The notes under the pieces are model-generated. The model searched no databases. It was not told where the DNA came from and saw only the letters and a program-made list of their open reading frames with translations. From contig CACYFN010000006.1 in the NCBI GenBank assembly GCA_902773675.1, positions 1 through 60,550 on the forward strand: a DNA stretch of 60,550 nucleotides. Reading direction: 5' to 3'. Both the position numbers and the translations under genes were made by a program. This DNA is from an uncultured Erysipelotrichaceae bacterium (GTDB lineage Bacteria > Bacillota_I > Bacilli_A > RF39 > UBA660). Positions within the stretch are counted from its first letter, which is position 1, and each line of letters starts with the position of its first letter. Below, piece by piece: positions 21,869 through 33,254 of this stretch.

Positions 21869-22639
21869 TTATGATTTATAATCATTAAAACCATATTCAT
21901 TTAAATATTTTTCTTTTTCACGCCATTTTTTAACAGTTTTAACAAATAAATCTAAGTAAACACTTTTGCCCATTAATTTTTCTATATCAATACGAGCAGA
22001 AGTACCAATTTCCTTTATCATATTACCATGACTACCAATAATAATTTTCTTTAAAGAATCTCTATCAACTATAATAGCTACACGTATATTATAACTAGTT
22101 TTACCTATTTCAACAGATTCAGTAACACAAGTAATAGAATATGGTACTTCTTCTTCTGTTAAATTAAATACCTTTTCTCTAACTATTTCACTAATTAAAA
22201 AATCAATTGATTTATTAGTAATATCATTTTCTCCATAATATCTAATATTATCCGGTAAATACTTTTTTAAAGTATCAATTAAATCTCTAATATTATCTTT
22301 CGTATATGATGAAACAGGTATAATTTCATCAAAATCATATAAATCTTTATATAAACCATCATAAGCATCTACTACAAGCATAATAATATCTGTATCATTG
22401 ATACTAAAATAAGCTTGATCATTCAAGTTTTTTCCTAATTTATCATTAGGTTTATGAATACCAGGAGTATCTACAAATACCATTTGATACTTATCCTCAT
22501 TATAAATTCCTTGTATAATATTTCTAGTTGTCTGTGGCTTATTTGAAGTAATAGCTATTTTCTTACCTATTATACTATTAATTAAGGTACTCTTTCCAAC
22601 ATTTGGCCTTCCAACAATACCTATAAATCCACTCTTCAT
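21869..22639 (-). CDS. era: GTPase Era with a shortened G domain (no G4 NKxD segment)
   Basis: G1 GRPNVGKS, G2 QTTR and G3 DTPG are present, and the C-terminal KH domain is intact (VREKVFNLTEEEVPYSI..IIGSHGNMIKEIG). The protein is only 256 aa because about 40 residues between VVDAYDG and FDEIIPVSS are missing. Confidence 0.85.
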   Translation of the reverse strand: MKSGFIGIVGRPNVGKSTLINSIIGKKIAITSNKPQTTRNIIQGIYNEDKYQMVFVDTPGIHKPNDKLGKNLNDQAYFSINDTDIIMLVVDAYDGLYKDLYDFDEIIPVSSYTKDNIRDLIDTLKKYLPDNIRYYGENDITNKSIDFLISEIVREKVFNLTEEEVPYSITCVTESVEIGKTSYNIRVAIIVDRDSLKKIIIGSHGNMIKEIGTSARIDIEKLMGKSVYLDLFVKTVKKWREKEKYLNEYGFNDYKS

Positions 22640-23044: not shown

Positions 23045-23488
23045 TCACCTTGTAATTCCTAATTCATTTAATATTTCTTCTTGTTTACCAAACATAATTT
23101 TTTCATCATTTTTTTCCATATGATCATATCCAAGTAGATGAAGAATTCCATGTACAGTTAAAAATGATAGTTCACGTCTAAAACTATGTCCATAGGATTT
23201 AGCTTGTTCATGTACTTTATCAATAGAAATATAAATATCTCCTAATACTCTAAAATCAGTATTAACAAATGTTTTATCATCTTCAAGAGCAAAAGAAATA
23301 ACATCAGTAGGACGATCTATACCTCTATATTCTTTATTTATTTTGTGTATTTTTTCATTATCAATTATAATTACATTCATAATAGCATTACTAACATTTT
23401 CATGCTTTAAAGCATATTCAATAACATTATTTAAGTCAATTATATCTATTTCTTCATTTGTTTCATTAATTATTTCTATACTATTCAT
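23045..23488 (-). CDS. ybeY: rRNA maturation endoribonuclease YbeY
   Basis: HGILHLLGYDH metal-binding motif, 147 aa. Confidence 0.9.
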   Translation of the reverse strand: MNSIEIINETNEEIDIIDLNNVIEYALKHENVSNAIMNVIIIDNEKIHKINKEYRGIDRPTDVISFALEDDKTFVNTDFRVLGDIYISIDKVHEQAKSYGHSFRRELSFLTVHGILHLLGYDHMEKNDEKIMFGKQEEILNELGITR

Positions 23489-23543
23489 AACTACCTCTTA
23501 ACTATACATCTATTATATTATAAATAGAAAAGTTTGTAAATAG

Positions 23544-23565
23544 AAAAAAACTCATTCAGAGTTTT
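23544..23565 (-). terminator. hairpin terminator overlapping the toxN stop codon
   Basis: aaaactc / gagtttt 7-bp stem with a 5-nt loop. On the minus strand it is followed by a T run. Confidence 0.5.
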
Positions 23566-24067
23566 AATTATTGTATATAGCGCACTTTTCTTCTAATAAA
23601 GGATAGTTACAACATCTATCTTTAACATTCCTTGGTAATTTATCATTTATATATAAATTATATAAAATTTTTGATTTCTGATATATATCTTTCTTATTAG
23701 AAGTTAACCATCTTAACTGATTATTTAATAATTGAATTCGATATTGTTCATTTTTTCCATTCGTTTTTTTATTCAAATCAAATTCAGTATAATTATTATT
23801 TGTTACAGGTATCATGTTATTAAAATTAACTACACCATATATTCCATCATTAATTTTTATTAAATCTAAAGTATTCTTTAATTTAATATGTTTAGGCTTT
23901 GGACTAGAAAGTGGAGCAAAATACTCACAATTATTAACTGTAAATAATATACCTACAAAAGGTCTTAATTCTTTATTTCCAGCATTATATGAAACTTTAT
24001 CATCATATTTTCGTAAAAAATTACAATAATCTGAATCAACTTTAACTATTTTAATTTTTTTATACAT
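23564..24067 (-). CDS. toxN: type III toxin-antitoxin system toxin, ToxN/AbiQ-family endoribonuclease
   Basis: 167 aa. YCNFLRKYDDKV, RPFVGILFTVNNCEYFAPLSSPKPKH and CCNYPLLEEK parallel the ToxN/AbiQ signature as I remember it. AGGAGG SD. Preceded by a tandem repeat array plus hairpin. Confidence 0.8.
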   Translation of the reverse strand: MYKKIKIVKVDSDYCNFLRKYDDKVSYNAGNKELRPFVGILFTVNNCEYFAPLSSPKPKHIKLKNTLDLIKINDGIYGVVNFNNMIPVTNNNYTEFDLNKKTNGKNEQYRIQLLNNQLRWLTSNKKDIYQKSKILYNLYINDKLPRNVKDRCCNYPLLEEKCAIYNN

Positions 24068-24090
24068 AAATACCTCCTACATATAATAAA

Positions 24091-24114
24091 AGATTAGAGT
24101 GTGTTCTCTAATCT
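24091..24114 (-). terminator. attenuator/terminator hairpin between the repeat array and toxN
   Basis: agattagag (24091-24099) pairs with ctctaatct (24106-24114), a 9-bp perfect stem with a 6-nt loop. On the minus strand it is followed by TTTATTAT, then the AGGAGG SD. Confidence 0.6.
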
Positions 24115-24235
24115 CACTTTTTTAGCTGCCATTTATAGAGCTGGCTTCACTCACTTTTTTAGCTGCCATTTATAGAGCTGGCTTCACTCACTTTTTTAGC
24201 TGCCATTTATAGAGCTGGCTTCACTCACTTTTTTA
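24113..24235 (-). ncRNA. toxI: ToxI-like antitoxin RNA array: 3.3 perfect tandem copies of a 37-nt unit
   Basis: The period is exactly 37 nt (agctgcc at 24124, 24161, 24198) and the copies are identical. Transcribed-strand unit: gtgaagccagctctataaatggcagctaaaaaagtga. There are no spacers. The array lies directly upstream of toxN on the same strand. Confidence 0.7.
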
Positions 24236-24248
24236 CTACATAAGTAGC

Positions 24249-24300
24249 TTTTATATTATATGCAAAAATTTGCATTTTATATTATATGCAAAAATTTGCA
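24249..24300 (-). repeat. perfect 2 x 26-bp tandem duplication flanked by a 12-bp inverted repeat; candidate toxIN promoter/operator
   Basis: ttttatattatatgcaaaaatttgca occurs at 24249-24274 and 24275-24300. Each copy carries TATAAT on the minus strand. The inverted repeat is tactacataagt (24234-24245) / acttatgtagta (24309-24320). Confidence 0.85.
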
Positions 24301-24369
24301 CAATAATCACTTATGTAGTAGTAACATATCATATTTTTTCTTATTTGTCTATACTTTTTTAACATTTTG

Positions 24370-24999
24370 TTAAATATCTTTTACCTCAGGCATAGGAAGA
24401 TCAAAAGTTACATGATTATATCTTTCAACATCTTGTTCAATACATAATTCTGTATATTTATCATCCCATGATAATCTATATACATCTTCAATATTTAATT
24501 CTAATAACGCAACATAATGTTTTACATTTTCTATTGGATCAATACCCTTATTTTCTATTTCTAAAGCAATACCAAAAGGATATTCATCAATAGCTATTTC
24601 AATATCATTATTTGTATATAATGTACGATATCTTTCATAACTTTCAATACATTTCATTTTAAGTACATTATCAAGTAAATATAACAAATTATCATAATCG
24701 TTATAATCAATGTTTACTTCAATTTCTTCCTCTTTATTTACTAAATTACTAGTAGTATCATTAAATCTTTTTTTCCAACTAATCTTACATTTAGATTCCT
24801 GAATACTTTTAGTAACTCTTATTCTAAATCTACCATCTATTTCTTTAGAATAAAAACTAATATTATCACTAGGATGATCATATTGAATAGTCTTTTCATA
24901 ATATCTTCCATTATTAGTTAATTCTTTAATATTATCTAATTTAGTTATTATTTCATTTAATTTATTCTTTGAATAATAAAATCTTACTTCATATTCCAT
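24370..24999 (-). CDS. CYTH-domain protein (CyaB-like class IV adenylyl cyclase / triphosphate tunnel metalloenzyme fold)
   Basis: Starts MEYEVRF (the E-x-E-x-K/R motif at the first strand). Also has RFRIR, IEIAIDEYPFGIALEIE, 209 aa. Confidence 0.7.
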   Translation of the reverse strand: MEYEVRFYYSKNKLNEIITKLDNIKELTNNGRYYEKTIQYDHPSDNISFYSKEIDGRFRIRVTKSIQESKCKISWKKRFNDTTSNLVNKEEEIEVNIDYNDYDNLLYLLDNVLKMKCIESYERYRTLYTNNDIEIAIDEYPFGIALEIENKGIDPIENVKHYVALLELNIEDVYRLSWDDKYTELCIEQDVERYNHVTFDLPMPEVKDI

Positions 25000-25010
25000 A
25001 ATATCACCTA

Positions 25011-25883
25011 TTATCTTTTATTACTTGATACTATTTTCTTCTTACTTAATACTAATTCATTACTTGTTTGAACTATCGTATTTTTACAGTAAGGACATAC
25101 ATTACTAGATATTACTTCTATAGGTGCTCCACATGAAGGGCAATTAGTTATTTTATTTTTATTAGACATAACAAATGTTAATTCATAACTGTTATTAAAA
25201 TAAATTTTTTTACTTCCTCTAACTACATTATTATTTTTTGTATTAATTACATAATCTTTAAATTCTATATCTAAATAAACACTAACTTCAATCAGGTTAT
25301 TAACTTCTTTAACTTCATAAACATCAATCAACCTAACAACAAAATCGCTCATTATATTTTGTTCATTTTTAAGTTTTAATGTCTCTAATAATGTTTTATA
25401 TTGATTATAAAGTTCATCAGTACATAATTTTCTTAAACTATTATAATCAAAATTCATCCAAGACTCTTGAACATCTATAAAATGTTTTTTAATTTTATTT
25501 TTAAAATCATCTTTACTCATTCCAAAATATCTAATGTATTCTTCATCAGATAAATCTAAATATATATGTTTTTTTGTTAATAAATTTTTATATTTAACAT
25601 TAGGGAAAGAAAAAAAGCTAATAATCAATACTACTAAAATAAATATAACAGGCATCCAATCATTATTAGAAGACGACGAATGACCTCTCCTCGAATAATA
25701 ATTTGAATCATATCTATCGCTAGATGAAGACCAACTAGAGCCTCCCCAGTCAGAACCTCCCCAATCAGATCCTCCACTGTAATCCGAATCCCAACCAGAA
25801 TCAGCTTTTACATAAAATACTGTAGTTATTGATATAATCGCTAATAATATAAATATAGATATTTTCTTTATATATTTCATCAT
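25011..25883 (-). CDS. membrane protein with a G/S/W/D-rich low-complexity segment, a Tim44-like domain and a C-terminal zinc ribbon
   Basis: Signal/TM helix, DSGWDSDYSGGSDWGGSDWGGSSWSSSS, a second TM helix, an FIDVQESWMNFDYNSLRKLCTDELY region that looks Tim44-like/NTF2-like, and CPSCGAPIE..CPYCKN. Confidence 0.55.
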   Translation of the reverse strand: MMKYIKKISIFILLAIISITTVFYVKADSGWDSDYSGGSDWGGSDWGGSSWSSSSDRYDSNYYSRRGHSSSSNNDWMPVIFILVVLIISFFSFPNVKYKNLLTKKHIYLDLSDEEYIRYFGMSKDDFKNKIKKHFIDVQESWMNFDYNSLRKLCTDELYNQYKTLLETLKLKNEQNIMSDFVVRLIDVYEVKEVNNLIEVSVYLDIEFKDYVINTKNNNVVRGSKKIYFNNSYELTFVMSNKNKITNCPSCGAPIEVISSNVCPYCKNTIVQTSNELVLSKKKIVSSNKR

Positions 25884-26425
25884 CTTATTTCCTCTATTTC
25901 ATCTAATATATAATCATATTTTTTAGTATCATAATATGTATTACAATACTTACATTTACCGCTATCATTAATATCAATACTAGCTCCACAATTAGTACAA
26001 TATCTAACACTCTTTTGTACCTTAGTATTCTTATTTTTTCTAAATATTAATCTATATTTTTCTATAATTCTATTATCTTTGTCACCAGATGCATAATCAC
26101 CACTATCAAGTTTAATAAAATATTTTAAATATCTAGTAGTAATAATTACTTCAATTTCATAATAATTATCATTTACATTTATATTGATAATATCAGTACT
26201 TTTAATATTTAATTCATCATACATTCTTCTAAGGTTTTTATTTTTGCTTTCATTTATAATATTAATTGCATACTCATATACATTATCACTTATATTATGT
26301 CTAACGTCATCTAAGTTTTGAAACATTATACCAGTAAATAGCTTAATAAATATATTATTTACACGTGTTCTAAACATACTTTCATTAAAATTTTGATCTT
26401 TTATTTCTAATTCATTTAAAGTCAT
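25880..26425 (-). CDS. soluble Tim44-like domain protein with a zinc ribbon (paralog of 25011..25883)
   Basis: Same domain order without TM helices. CTNCGASID..CKYCNTYY. ATGA overlap with the downstream gene. Confidence 0.5.
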   Translation of the reverse strand: MTLNELEIKDQNFNESMFRTRVNNIFIKLFTGIMFQNLDDVRHNISDNVYEYAINIINESKNKNLRRMYDELNIKSTDIININVNDNYYEIEVIITTRYLKYFIKLDSGDYASGDKDNRIIEKYRLIFRKNKNTKVQKSVRYCTNCGASIDINDSGKCKYCNTYYDTKKYDYILDEIEEIR

Positions 26426-26479
26426 AACTACATCCTTTCAGTAAAATCATTATTCATATAGAGGAGCTAAAAAATTTTC

Positions 26480-26773
26480 TTATCTTGTTCTTCCTTTTTC
26501 TCTTTCTTCCATCACATATTTATCATAGCTTAACAATTCATCAACACCATCAACTTCACCAACAAAATCAACAGCTAAACTTTCATCATCAAAATATGCT
26601 TTGCTAACTTGATCAAATATTTCAGAAATCATTTGATTTTTTATTTCTGAAGGAATATTATCATTAGATAATATTTTTTTAATATCATATAATCTCATAC
26701 CTAAATAGGCAGACGTTTTTCTTTCGTAATTTAAATTAGTTAATACTTGTTCTAAATCCTGTTGAACACTCAT
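26480..26773 (-). CDS. hypothetical acidic protein
   Basis: 97-aa ORF with a GGAGG SD. First gene of the co-oriented 26773-24370 group. Confidence 0.5.
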   Translation of the reverse strand: MSVQQDLEQVLTNLNYERKTSAYLGMRLYDIKKILSNDNIPSEIKNQMISEIFDQVSKAYFDDESLAVDFVGEVDGVDELLSYDKYVMEEREKGRTR

Positions 26774-27396: not shown

Positions 27397-28558
27397 CTAT
27401 TTCTTGATATTCAGTAATATCTTCAACCACACTATAAAATATCTTTACTGTAACACTTTCCTTATCATTATAACTACCTATTATTTTTTTATTTAATATA
27501 AATTCTTTATCATTTAAACTATCTTCAATTTTTTTAGTTGATATAGATACAGCTTTATTAATAGCTTCATCAACTGTATTATCCTCTTCTTTAACTTTTA
27601 ATTCTTTTTGATATTGTTTTTCAAAACTAATAGGTAAAATATTATTTTTAAATATAATATTACTTTCAATTGATTTAAACTTAAAATGTTTAAAACTAAA
27701 TAATTCAATATTCTTATTTAAAAATTTAAAAACATAAACATTTTTATTATTACCTGTGACTATTTCTTCCTTATATTTTAAAGGATAAGTAATAGTAACC
27801 ATATACCATACTTCGCCTAATACTGTACCTTTACTTATTACAGTATCTTTTATGGTATCATTTAAGGAAATATATCCACTAACAATTATATCACCTTTTT
27901 TAACATAATCATTTCTATTTCTTATAATTTGTCCACTATTTATATCTAAACTATATATAATAGCATTCTTACGTGCTACTATATTTTTAAATTTATTATT
28001 ATCATTAATAGGATTATTAATTCTTGGTTCATATCTTACTATATATTTAGTACCAATATTTTCTATTTCTATCCAATCAATTTTATCTCTATATTTTTCC
28101 AATATATTACTCTTTATTCTTTGTAAATCATTATAATTTTTCTTAAAACCATATAATTTTAAGCCATTACTATTTAGTTCATCAAGTAATACTTCTTTCA
28201 TATTATTATCATTAGTAATTATATCTATTGAAAAAGTAATTCTACTTAAAAATATAATAATAATTAAGCCGATAAATATAAAAATAAATAAAAATTTATT
28301 AAAATTAATTTTTTTTATTAAATTAATTAATCCTTCATATTCTTCTTCTTCTACTTCATAAGTTGTCTTTATATCAAGTAATTTACTATAATCTTGTTTA
28401 TATATTTTAATACTAAGTGTACTATTATCAACATATTTTATATCTAATATATCTATATTATACTTATTTAATCTTTTAATAAAATTTAAAACATTTTTAC
28501 CAGTTATGTTTATAATAATTTTGCTTTTTAATTTTTTTATAATATCATTTTTAATAAT
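27362..28558 (-). CDS. yqfD: sporulation protein YqfD (stage IV); 5' end uncertain, no canonical start codon
   Basis: The track ORF (27362..28201) begins at the first ATG. The frame stays open up to the TAG at 28571-28573. The extra codons encode the expected N-terminus (IIKNDIIKKLKSKIIINITGKNVLNFIKRLNKYNIDILDIKY) and the single TM helix (FLFIFIFIGLIIIIFL). AGGTGAT SD at 28559-28565. Confidence 0.75.
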   Translation of the reverse strand: MIKNDIIKKLKSKIIINITGKNVLNFIKRLNKYNIDILDIKYVDNSTLSIKIYKQDYSKLLDIKTTYEVEEEEYEGLINLIKKINFNKFLFIFIFIGLIIIIFLSRITFSIDIITNDNNMKEVLLDELNSNGLKLYGFKKNYNDLQRIKSNILEKYRDKIDWIEIENIGTKYIVRYEPRINNPINDNNKFKNIVARKNAIIYSLDINSGQIIRNRNDYVKKGDIIVSGYISLNDTIKDTVISKGTVLGEVWYMVTITYPLKYKEEIVTGNNKNVYVFKFLNKNIELFSFKHFKFKSIESNIIFKNNILPISFEKQYQKELKVKEEDNTVDEAINKAVSISTKKIEDSLNDKEFILNKKIIGSYNDKESVTVKIFYSVVEDITEYQEIDEYKESDESVN

Positions 28559-32240: not shown

Positions 32241-33254
32241 TTAAATAATTAATTTTTGACCTACACTAAGTAAATTATTTTTTAAATTATTTTTTGTTTT
32301 AATACTATTAACAGTAGTATTATATTTTCTCGCAATACTATATAAGTTATCACCACTTTTAACTATATAAATATTTGTTGTAGTATTTTTTGTACTTGGT
32401 ATCTTTAATATCTGTCCGATACTTAAAGTATTACTAACTAAATTATTTAAACTTTTAATTTCAGATACAGTAGTATTAAATTTACTAGCTATTGAATATA
32501 AACTATCTCCTGCCTTTACAGTATATGATGTTTGATTAGTATTATTAGATTCACTAGGTATCTTTAAAATTTGTCCAATGCTTAAACTATCACTTGTTAA
32601 ATTATTTAAACTTTTTATAACTGATACACTCGTGTTATATTTTTTAGCAATATCATATAAATTATCTCCTTTTTTTACTGTATATGTAATAGATACTGTA
32701 TCTTCAGGTGGTGTATAATCAGGCCCAAAACATTCTTCTACTAGTGTAGTTGTACCTTCAGGAATTCTTATTTTTAATACTTGGCCGATATTTAATATAT
32801 TATTAGTTAAAGAATTATCTTTAATAAGCGTATCAACACTAATGTTATTATTTCTAGCTATTGTATATATAGTATCTCCTGCTTTAACCGTATAACTTGT
32901 ATAATTAGGCATAATCATTTGATCTTCAGGAGTATACATTTCTGGTATTCTAAGTACTTGACCAATACTTAAATTATTACTTGTTAAATTATTTAAATCT
33001 TTAATAGCAGCTACTGTTGTATTATATTTAGTAGCTATTTTATAAAGAGAATCTCCTTTTACAACAGTATACATAAACATAGTATTAGGATTAGTCCCTG
33101 ATGTTGATGGTATAGTTAACACTTGACCAATCTTTAATGAATCAGCAGTAACATTATTAAGCCTAGCAAGTTCTGTAACCGATACACCATATTGATTACT
33201 AATCCCATATAAAGTATCTCCTGCTTTAACTGTATATGTATTTATTTTTATCAC
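32241..33254 (-). CDS. protein made of six LysM domains (SafA-like / spore peptidoglycan-binding)
   Basis: Six copies of Y(T/I)VK.GD.LY.IA..YN..V..IK..NNL....L.IGQ.L.IP. No signal peptide. Confidence 0.85.
   Translation of the reverse strand: MIKINTYTVKAGDTLYGISNQYGVSVTELARLNNVTADSLKIGQVLTIPSTSGTNPNTMFMYTVVKGDSLYKIATKYNTTVAAIKDLNNLTSNNLSIGQVLRIPEMYTPEDQMIMPNYTSYTVKAGDTIYTIARNNNISVDTLIKDNSLTNNILNIGQVLKIRIPEGTTTLVEECFGPDYTPPEDTVSITYTVKKGDNLYDIAKKYNTSVSVIKSLNNLTSDSLSIGQILKIPSESNNTNQTSYTVKAGDSLYSIASKFNTTVSEIKSLNNLVSNTLSIGQILKIPSTKNTTTNIYIVKSGDNLYSIARKYNTTVNSIKTKNNLKNNLLSVGQKLII

Follow-up and report, generated by a model that had tools for sequence, protein, structure and literature searches.

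Does a 37-nt tandem repeat standing directly ahead of a short open reading frame (ORF), amid ordinary housekeeping genes, make up a toxin-antitoxin system of type III, and if so, is its repetitive RNA an antitoxin of a new kind? This question is raised by a locus on contig CACYFN010000006.1 of an uncultured Erysipelotrichaceae bacterium, of which a stretch of 60,550 nt (referred to here as the window) was analysed. All parts of the locus lie on the minus strand, and the contigs used for comparison are designated by L-numbers. The analysis indicated that the locus is very probably an intact, self-contained chromosomal ToxIN cassette of type III, carried by a member of the uncultured gut/rumen Bacilli with a GC content of about 22%. 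Type III loci are defined by the order of repeats, terminator and toxin (PMC5086642). An initial annotation, made from the sequence alone, had recognised such a module at this place, with a ToxN/AbiQ-like toxin, a repeat RNA and an attenuating terminator, and every computational test that was run bore this out.

Analysis with Tandem Repeats Finder (TRF) placed the array at 24113-24235, as annotated, with a period of 37 nt, 3.3 copies and 100% matches (score 246), the copies following one another head to tail without spacers. Four runs of six adenines (A6; 24234-24229, 24197-24192, 24160-24155 and 24123-24118) bound exactly three complete 37-nt units (24234-24198, 24197-24161 and 24160-24124), each of which carries the AAAAAA motif that had been pointed out. 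A GUGAG remnant (24117-24113) closes the array, whose end stands 45 nt ahead of the toxin start codon on this strand. The 27-nt core of the unit occurs three times in the window and nowhere outside the array (expected number 0, from 100 shuffles). The hairpin and T-rich run downstream of the array, as well as the AGGAGG motif (24078-24073) followed by the ATG of a 167-aa ORF (24067-23564), were likewise found where the annotation had placed them, the hairpin having a stem of 10 bp and a loop of 6 nt (24115-24090). With its 37 nt, 3.3 copies and 167 aa, the locus is close to the means published for toxIN loci (38.1 nt, 2.8 copies and 168 aa; PMC3401426), a family in which repeats range from 31 to 62 nt and from 1.9 to 5.6 copies (PMC3401426 Table 2). 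The cassette occupies about 0.8 kb of the minus strand in the order leader, repeats, terminator, ribosome binding site (RBS) and toxin, and is composed of the following parts:

24323..24351, minus strand: candidate promoter P1, composed of TAGACA, a 17-nt spacer and a TG-extended TATGTT (promoter scan, 9/12 matches, TG before the -10 hexamer)
24249..24300, minus strand: leader element, two perfect 26-nt direct copies, with the palindrome TGCAAATTTTTGCA abutting TATAAT (TRF, period 26, 2.0 copies, 100% matches)
24235..24248, minus strand: 5' hairpin GCUAC-UUAU-GUAGU adjoining the first A-run (-5.1 kcal/mol, z = -3.6)
24113..24235, minus strand: toxI antitoxin array (TRF, arrays of related species and the clade covariance model R1)
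24202..24226, minus strand: predicted pseudoknot core of unit 1, recurring every 37 nt (pair counting on 45 distinct units)
24082..24115, minus strand: Rho-independent terminator/attenuator between toxI and toxN, with a 10-bp stem, a 6-nt loop and a U-rich tail (terminator scan and folding)
24073..24078, minus strand: RBS of toxN, AGGAGG, 5 nt before the ATG at 24067 (read from the sequence)
23564..24067, minus strand: toxN, coding for a predicted ToxN/AbiQ-family endoribonuclease toxin of 167 aa, with the stop codon TAA (Pfam, PADLOC, PDB and fold matches)
23544..23564, minus strand: weak terminator-like hairpin AAACUC-UGAAU-GAGUUU with a U-run, directly 3' of the toxN stop codon (read from the sequence)

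The last of these hairpins has too few G-C pairs to pass the terminator scan, and after it comes a strong match to a promoter for ybeY (23540-23512, TTTACA-17-TATAAT, 11/12; promoter scan). Because the toxN stop codon is followed by a hairpin with a U-run and then by this near-consensus ybeY promoter, toxIN looks like an autonomous transcription unit. The array, the terminator and toxN are base-for-base the same in the independent metagenome contigs L085, L090 and L086 over the parts that these contigs cover, and the locus is therefore not an assembly artefact.

The toxin call found support at the levels of profile, structure and fold. A Pfam search of the 167-aa protein, which the initial annotation had proposed as a check, gave a full-length match to ToxN_toxin (PF13958; E = 7e-49, 166 bits where the cutoff is 25, over positions 2-159 of the 159 in the profile), and the PADLOC AbiQ model matched it with 1e-34. 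A phmmer comparison with the PDB retrieved all solved ToxN/AbiQ structures, that is ToxN_Bt (4ATO, 1e-19), ToxN_Pa (2XD0, 1e-14), ToxN_Ec (7D8O, 1e-13) and AbiQ (4GLK, 3.5e-8). When the AlphaFold2 model of the protein (pLDDT 86.8, pTM 0.80) was compared with the same four structures using Foldseek, TM values of 0.75-0.79 were obtained (probability 1.00), whereas the value for CptN (4RMO) was only 0.50 (E = 0.012). Membership of the CptIN or TenpIN families was rejected on the grounds of this low CptN value, of PF13958 being the sole Pfam match, and of the 37-nt unit falling under the repeat ranges of both (40-48 nt for cptIN and 39-57 nt for tenpIN; PMC3401426).

The catalytic residues described for ToxN are K33, T52, S53 and K55, the first being replaced by Arg in some clusters (PMC8860590). 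In the phmmer alignment these correspond to R35, S54, S55 and K57 of the window protein (motif APL-S54-S55-P-K57), and among 14 aligned members of the clade R35, S54 and S55 are invariant and K57 nearly so. A Ser at the position equivalent to T52 is the essential residue of AbiQ (PMC5086642). The dN/dS ratio of toxN is 0.15-0.28 in comparison with seven relatives, and 0.22-0.28 even in comparison with alleles of 95-97% identity; the gene is under purifying selection.

A scan of species-representative genomes yielded at least 187 confirmed loci, and 80 of these, with toxins 56-77% identical to that of the window, served as the set of relatives. Their hosts are nearly all uncultured gut/rumen Bacilli, Erysipelotrichaceae, 'Tenericutes' or Clostridia, represented by metagenome-assembled genomes (MAGs). 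A tandem array stands upstream of the toxin gene and on its strand in 77 of the 80 species, with a period of 34-40 nt (37 in 33 loci and 36 in 28) and a copy number of 2.0-4.3 (modal value 3.2, in 49 loci), and an A6 run, the candidate substrate motif, is present in 67 of the 77 clade units. The conserved periodicity and the covariation for which the initial annotation had recommended a search among homologous loci were thus both found, the latter within a pseudoknot. In unit 1 its first stem pairs GAGU (24226-24223) with GCUC (24215-24212), and its second stem pairs GCCA (24219-24216) with UGGC (24205-24202).

For the analysis of covariation the units were aligned after circular permutation (alignment A3), which places the length-variable AU-rich loop at the end. 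A MAFFT alignment in the natural register (A2) was discarded: since the units vary in length only within this loop, it had slipped in the 3' arm. Across 45 distinct consensus units the two interleaved helices had 91.7% of cells paired, versus 19-57% when the partners were slid by 1-3 columns. Compensatory changes occur at three pairs (CG 21, AU 15, GC 7 and UG 1; GC 43 and CG 2; AU 11 and GC 10), and the 23 'unpaired' cells at pair 17-31 of A3 do not reflect true mispairing but an indel-register artefact that comes from the shorter unit class. The lengths of stems and loops (3-4 / 3-4 / 4 / 0-1 / 3-4 / 6 / 4) fit the manual ToxI template of Group I (Blower 2012), which consists of interleaved 3-4 nt stems with a Loop 1a-2a of 3-4 nt, a Loop 2a-1b of 1-2 nt and a Loop 1b-2b of variable length. 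A ToxI-type H-type pseudoknot is supported in silico as the predicted fold of the toxI unit.

The terminator is conserved as well. In the window its hairpin (10 pairs, loop of 6 nt) is followed by UUUUAUUAU and has a folding energy of -11.4 kcal/mol (z = -4.4), and the terminator scan gave 2 hits versus 0.1 expected. A hairpin with a T-run is located between the array and the toxin start in all 77 related loci with an array, the core GAUUAGAG/CUCUAAUC being conserved and compensatory variants being present.

Upstream of the array, in a leader spanning 24236-24351 in the window, the equivalent of P1, T(A/T)GACA-N17-TGnTATATT, is predicted as a promoter in 50 of 74 related loci, TATAAT is found not more than 60 nt from the array in 60 of them, and a hairpin of at least 4 bp adjoins the first A-run in 72 (with the covarying stems GCUA/UAGC, GCUG/CAGC and GCAAC/GUUGC). 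The clade leader also holds a hairpin, ACAUAAGUGAUUAUGU in many loci. The TATAAT of the leader has no recognisable -35 element. The 26-nt leader element is present as a single copy in the related loci and in the contigs L084, L088, L089, L096 and L097, which are conspecific (contigs encoding an identical YbeY were regarded as such), and the palindrome-TATAAT element is duplicated only in the strain of the window. The conserved leader of the clade, about 90 nt from the promoter to the first repeat, combines a TG-extended promoter with a hairpin, a TGCA-N4-7-TGCA palindrome to which a perfectly conserved TATAAT is fused, and the covarying 5' hairpin next to the first putative cleavage site, and it is the one feature of the locus outside the standard type III layout. 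It is conceivable, although rather improbable, that the palindrome-TATAAT element acts as an operator, a second promoter or an RNA element which sets the ToxI:ToxN ratio or senses infection, and would thus form an added regulatory layer, the near-constant three units per transcript matching one heterohexamer per transcript.

The second part of the question concerns the novelty of the antitoxin. An Rfam scan of 23400-24500, with E values up to 10, gave no ToxI match (RF02519, gathering threshold 50 bits) and only a chance hit to mir-367. As a control, RF02519, which is a model of the 34-nt B. thuringiensis type, was applied to known arrays: it scored ToxI_Bt of pAW63 with 59, 47 and 40 bits, and it detected neither the founding ToxI_Pa array (pECA1039, L081 647-848) nor the array of Fusobacterium. 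Because RF02519 is narrow and also blind to ToxI_Pa, the missing Rfam hit is uninformative, and therefore its failure excludes only the B. thuringiensis-type sequence subgroup and not membership of the ToxI class. The Rfam check suggested by the initial annotation did end without a match, yet in view of this control the result was rejected as evidence of novelty.

The covariance model R1, built on the clade, gave 55.9 bits for the two inner units of the window and picked up, in register and with 25.3 bits (E about 3e-4), the ToxI array of the Fusobacterium plasmid, the toxin of which is 45% identical to that of the window; a scan with R1 left ToxI_Pa and ToxI_Bt undetected, their toxins being 27-31% identical. 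RNA similarity thus declines alongside toxin divergence within one structural class. The window unit, ToxI_Pa, ToxI_Bt and the Fusobacterium ToxI have a common layout, composed of an A-run, a GGUG-like segment, stem 2a, (A/G)CC, an AU-rich loop, stem 2b and an xCUx tail, in arrays of 36 nt x 5.6 (Pa), 34 nt x 3.1 (Bt) and 37 nt x 3.4 (Fusobacterium). The earlier proposal that the repeat may define a new antitoxin RNA family was not supported, since the Group I pseudoknot template fits and R1 finds the Fusobacterium ToxI; the window array is a ToxI lineage without Rfam coverage and not a new kind of antitoxin.

Several known systems stand closest to the locus. The best toxin match is ToxIN_Bt of B. 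thuringiensis plasmid pAW63 (4ATO; RF02519), with E = 1e-19, a TM of 0.79 and 31% identity. Repeats, terminator and toxin follow each other as in the window, an A run separates the units and the pseudoknot layout is shared (GGU/ACC and GCCU/AGGC in Bt), but the system is plasmid-borne, its unit is 3 nt shorter (array of 34 nt x 3.1) and diverged in sequence, the window array goes unscored by RF02519 and ToxI_Bt by R1, and its toxin has a Thr where the window protein has S54. The founding members ToxIN_Pa (Pectobacterium atrosepticum pECA1039, 2XD0/2XDD) and ToxIN_Ec (7D8O) have the same fold (TM 0.77-0.78) and the same catalytic motif, and the 36-nt unit of ToxI_Pa, AGGTGATTTGCTACCTTTAAGTGCAGCTAGAAATTC, from which the Group I template derives, has the layout GGUGA...C.ACC...UAA.UGCAGCUA.AAA in common with the window unit. 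Unlike the window locus, these are proteobacterial and plasmid-borne with 5.6 repeats, their cleavage occurs at AA/AU or GAA/AU and not in a pure A run, the toxins are 24-27% identical (Foldseek alignment), and the RNAs are not linked by either Rfam ToxI or R1. For comparison, cleavage is at A/AAAA for ToxN_Bt and at A/AAA for AbiQ, and AA/AU is also known (PMC5086642).

Within the plasmid collection, the toxin nearest to that of the window (45% identity) belongs to the uncharacterised toxIN locus of Fusobacterium polymorphum plasmid pKKCOM1330A. Its array, AAAAAGTCGGTGTACTCTACCGTATAAGTGAGAACTA, 37 nt x 3.4, agrees with that of the window in period, A run and register, but the locus is on a plasmid in another phylum, has a longer annotated ORF and forms the stems CGG/CCG and CUC/GAG. 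Fusobacterium toxIN loci have been catalogued before (Blower 2012). AbiQ/antiQ of Lactococcus lactis plasmid pSRQ900 (4GLK) was compared via its toxin, which belongs to the same family (PADLOC 1e-34, TM 0.75), S51 of AbiQ corresponding to S54 of the window protein. By sequence it is the weakest of the structural relatives (E = 3.5e-8), and it is plasmid-borne; antiQ requires at least 1.8 repeats, whereas in L096, a strain nearly identical to that of the window, toxN is intact behind 1.3 of them.

By homology with ToxIN_Pa, ToxIN_Bt, ToxIN_Ec and AbiQ (PMC5086642, PMC8860590, PMC3401426), a mechanism may be drawn in which we infer the cleavage site, the stoichiometry, the toxicity, the neutralisation and the anti-phage role of the cassette. 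Transcription would begin upstream of the structured leader and pass the three 37-nt ToxI units bounded by the four A6 runs. Most transcripts would end at the hairpin terminator, and for this reason the RNA antitoxin would be in excess, while read-through would provide the toxN mRNA. ToxN, as a sequence-specific endoribonuclease relying on R35, S54, S55 and K57, would cut the precursor within the A runs, and a released unit would fold as an H-type pseudoknot, with its single-stranded tails filling the active sites of two ToxN molecules, so as to form a closed, inactive RNA-protein ring. If the supply of ToxI failed (e.g. because host transcription is shut down by a phage), the freed ToxN would cleave A-rich RNAs and the cell would be arrested, which amounts to abortive infection.

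The cassette has ybeY, cdd, era, recO and dnaG on its downstream side and a weak CYTH-like gene upstream, all on its own strand. The housekeeping, non-plasmid context seen by the initial annotation is not notable, since the chromosome harbours 57 of the 67 toxIN loci published (PMC3401426) and relatives do not share the site beside ybeY. A conserved synteny with ybeY could be dismissed, as only 4 of the 80 loci lie in that gene cluster, at another site (after recO); other homologues, in the contexts sampled, stand among unrelated ordinary genes. Recent horizontal acquisition was not indicated by composition (no GC anomaly), and an origin from a prophage or plasmid was also rejected (best plasmid hit 45% identical; three phage hits, at most 42%). 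No mobile-element genes were found in the sampled contexts of the locus and its relatives.

The explanation that competes best with phage defence, and which we regard as possible but considerably less likely, accepts a real ToxIN module and gives it another role, namely that of a selfish, addictive or stabilising element, or of a stress-responsive growth brake, kept by post-segregational or post-deletion killing. The position of the cassette is unconserved among the 80 species, and therefore it moves like a small selfish module; toxIN stands amid ordinary genes with no obvious defence islands; type III systems also serve as addiction modules (PMC5086642); and the decay of toxN within the species, described below, suggests a weak or fluctuating benefit for the host. 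However, every characterised system of the ToxN/AbiQ family that has been tested, including chromosomal ones expressed heterologously, gives abortive infection (PMC5086642), and the window toxin matches the PADLOC AbiQ model. Moreover, dN/dS well below 1 across many species, with at least 187 loci, speaks for a maintained function, and a Cas9-like gene in one relative and a Fic gene in another are located 3-4 kb away. The addiction and defence roles are not mutually exclusive.

Among the conspecific contigs the locus takes the following states:

L085, L086 and L090: array partly on the contig (absent from L086) and identical to that of the window where present; toxN identical to that of the window over the covered part; no other differences
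L097: array of 3.3 copies; intact toxN of 97% identity; leader element of 26 nt in one copy
L096: array of 1.3 copies (~940-1240); intact toxN of 95% identity; leader element of 26 nt in one copy
L084, L088 and L089: array retained; toxN frameshifted near codon 38 by a 2-nt (TA) insertion; RBS ATGAGG, one copy of the 26-nt leader element
L087 (480-1300): array collapsed to ~0.3 unit, abutting the terminator; toxN without ATG, frameshifted and interrupted by a nonsense codon; no CYTH-like gene
L091 (1-200, short contig): array off the contig; a different coding sequence fused in frame to the last ~25 codons of toxN (...KLPKNVKDRCCNYPLLEEKCAIYNN)

The changes in L084, L088 and L089 correspond to window positions 23952, 24077, 24125 and 24162, and the pseudogene is called as two ORFs of 63 and 83 aa. 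In these three contigs the same AGCU to AGUU substitution affects the tail of two of the three repeats, which suggests a concerted change within the array. The fusion in L091 could be an allelic replacement or a recombinant toxin. L096, if it is not an assembly collapse, would mean that one unit suffices, as for ToxI_Pa and unlike antiQ. An intact toxN is always paired with at least one full unit (3.3 copies in the window and L097, 1.3 in L096), none of the conspecific contigs pairs an intact toxin with a missing array, and L087, alone in having its array collapsed, has a triply disrupted toxN; this pattern is consistent with that expected if the array is the antitoxin.

It might be argued from the frameshift, the RBS mutation, the array collapse and the chimeric allele at this same site, which point to relaxed constraint in part of the population, that the window copy is itself a non-functional relic, with an ORF intact by chance and an ineffective array or RNase. 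We consider this very unlikely: in the window, the allele combines a flawless RBS with an ORF of full length that retains every catalytic residue, its three repeats are identical and its terminator is intact; the same allele turns up again in independent samples, and dN/dS remains 0.22-0.28 even versus 95-97% identical alleles. The window copy is intact and, in this strain, probably active. That the repeat is no antitoxin at all but a degenerate CRISPR-like array, a set of protein-binding iterons or solely a cis-acting attenuator is hardly credible, for although it matches no Rfam family and the isolated unit lacks significant folding energy, there are no spacers because the copies lie head to tail, the repeat keeps its place on the toxin strand directly upstream of the ToxN gene in 77 of 80 species despite its shifting chromosomal position, base-pair covariation indicates an RNA pseudoknot, and the Rfam miss is explained by the RF02519 control, the clade model finding the Fusobacterium plasmid ToxI array.

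Several points nevertheless weigh against the locus being a working ToxIN defence cassette. Transcription, processing, toxicity and defence are argued from homology, for the locus and the clade alike. Three contigs combine a frameshifted toxN with a retained array, and therefore the system can be dispensed with and is in decay in a part of the population; L087 fits either order of events, toxin death first or array loss first. In the protein, K59 stands where ToxN_Pa/Ec has W57, a residue required for toxicity in E. coli. In the RNA, the isolated unit has no thermodynamic signal (minimum free energy z = +0.2, in a single-sequence folding that is uninformative for a pseudoknot), so that the pseudoknot rests on covariation in helices of 3-4 bp, and much of this covariation separates two unit classes and so amounts to few independent events.

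Some further features of the surroundings were recorded. The genes at 24370-26773 (minus strand) code for a 97-aa protein, two Tim44-like zinc-ribbon proteins and the CYTH-like protein, and these four genes together with toxIN form a variable segment between a VanZ-like gene and ybeY. In the relatives L021, L034, L039 and L044 the distance from the VanZ-like gene to ybeY is only about 600 nt, with no match to the genes of the segment in between. In L084, two genes (117 and 151 aa) are called in place of the window's Tim44-like ORF of 290 aa. In two strains of one related species, a Cas9-like gene (L093 10244-12504; HNH_4, RuvC_III) and a Fic-domain gene (L092 9314-10384) are found 3-4 kb downstream of toxN, which might reflect a loose clustering of defence genes.

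Within era (21869-22639, minus strand), compared with the 295-aa Era of L084 and L085, 39 aa, among them the NKID G4 GTPase motif, have been lost through an in-frame deletion of 117 nt at about 22352; it is either a true variant of an essential GTPase or an assembly error. TGA read-through (an alternative genetic code) was rejected as the reason for the short Era ORF in favour of this deletion. Two other tandem repeats of the window, at 32394-32686 (159 nt x 1.8, 78% matches) and at 27458-27545 inside a yqfD-like ORF (45 nt x 2.0, 79% matches), bear no relation to the toxI unit.

As an ordinary member of the ToxIN family, the locus leaves the understanding of type III systems unchanged. It contributes a ToxI/ToxN pair that is well supported and backed by covariation, from a large clade that has hardly been studied (over 2,000 homologous proteins, with at least 187 loci in species-representative genomes, from uncultured gut/rumen Bacilli and Clostridia MAGs), and phage defence in organisms with such reduced genomes is poorly known. 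Because the Rfam ToxI model covers the B. thuringiensis type only, type III antitoxin arrays are largely left unannotated by standard pipelines, even where the toxin gene is named automatically. The 45 natural unit variants with their matched toxins constitute a data set for studies of RNA-protein specificity and co-evolution in type III systems.

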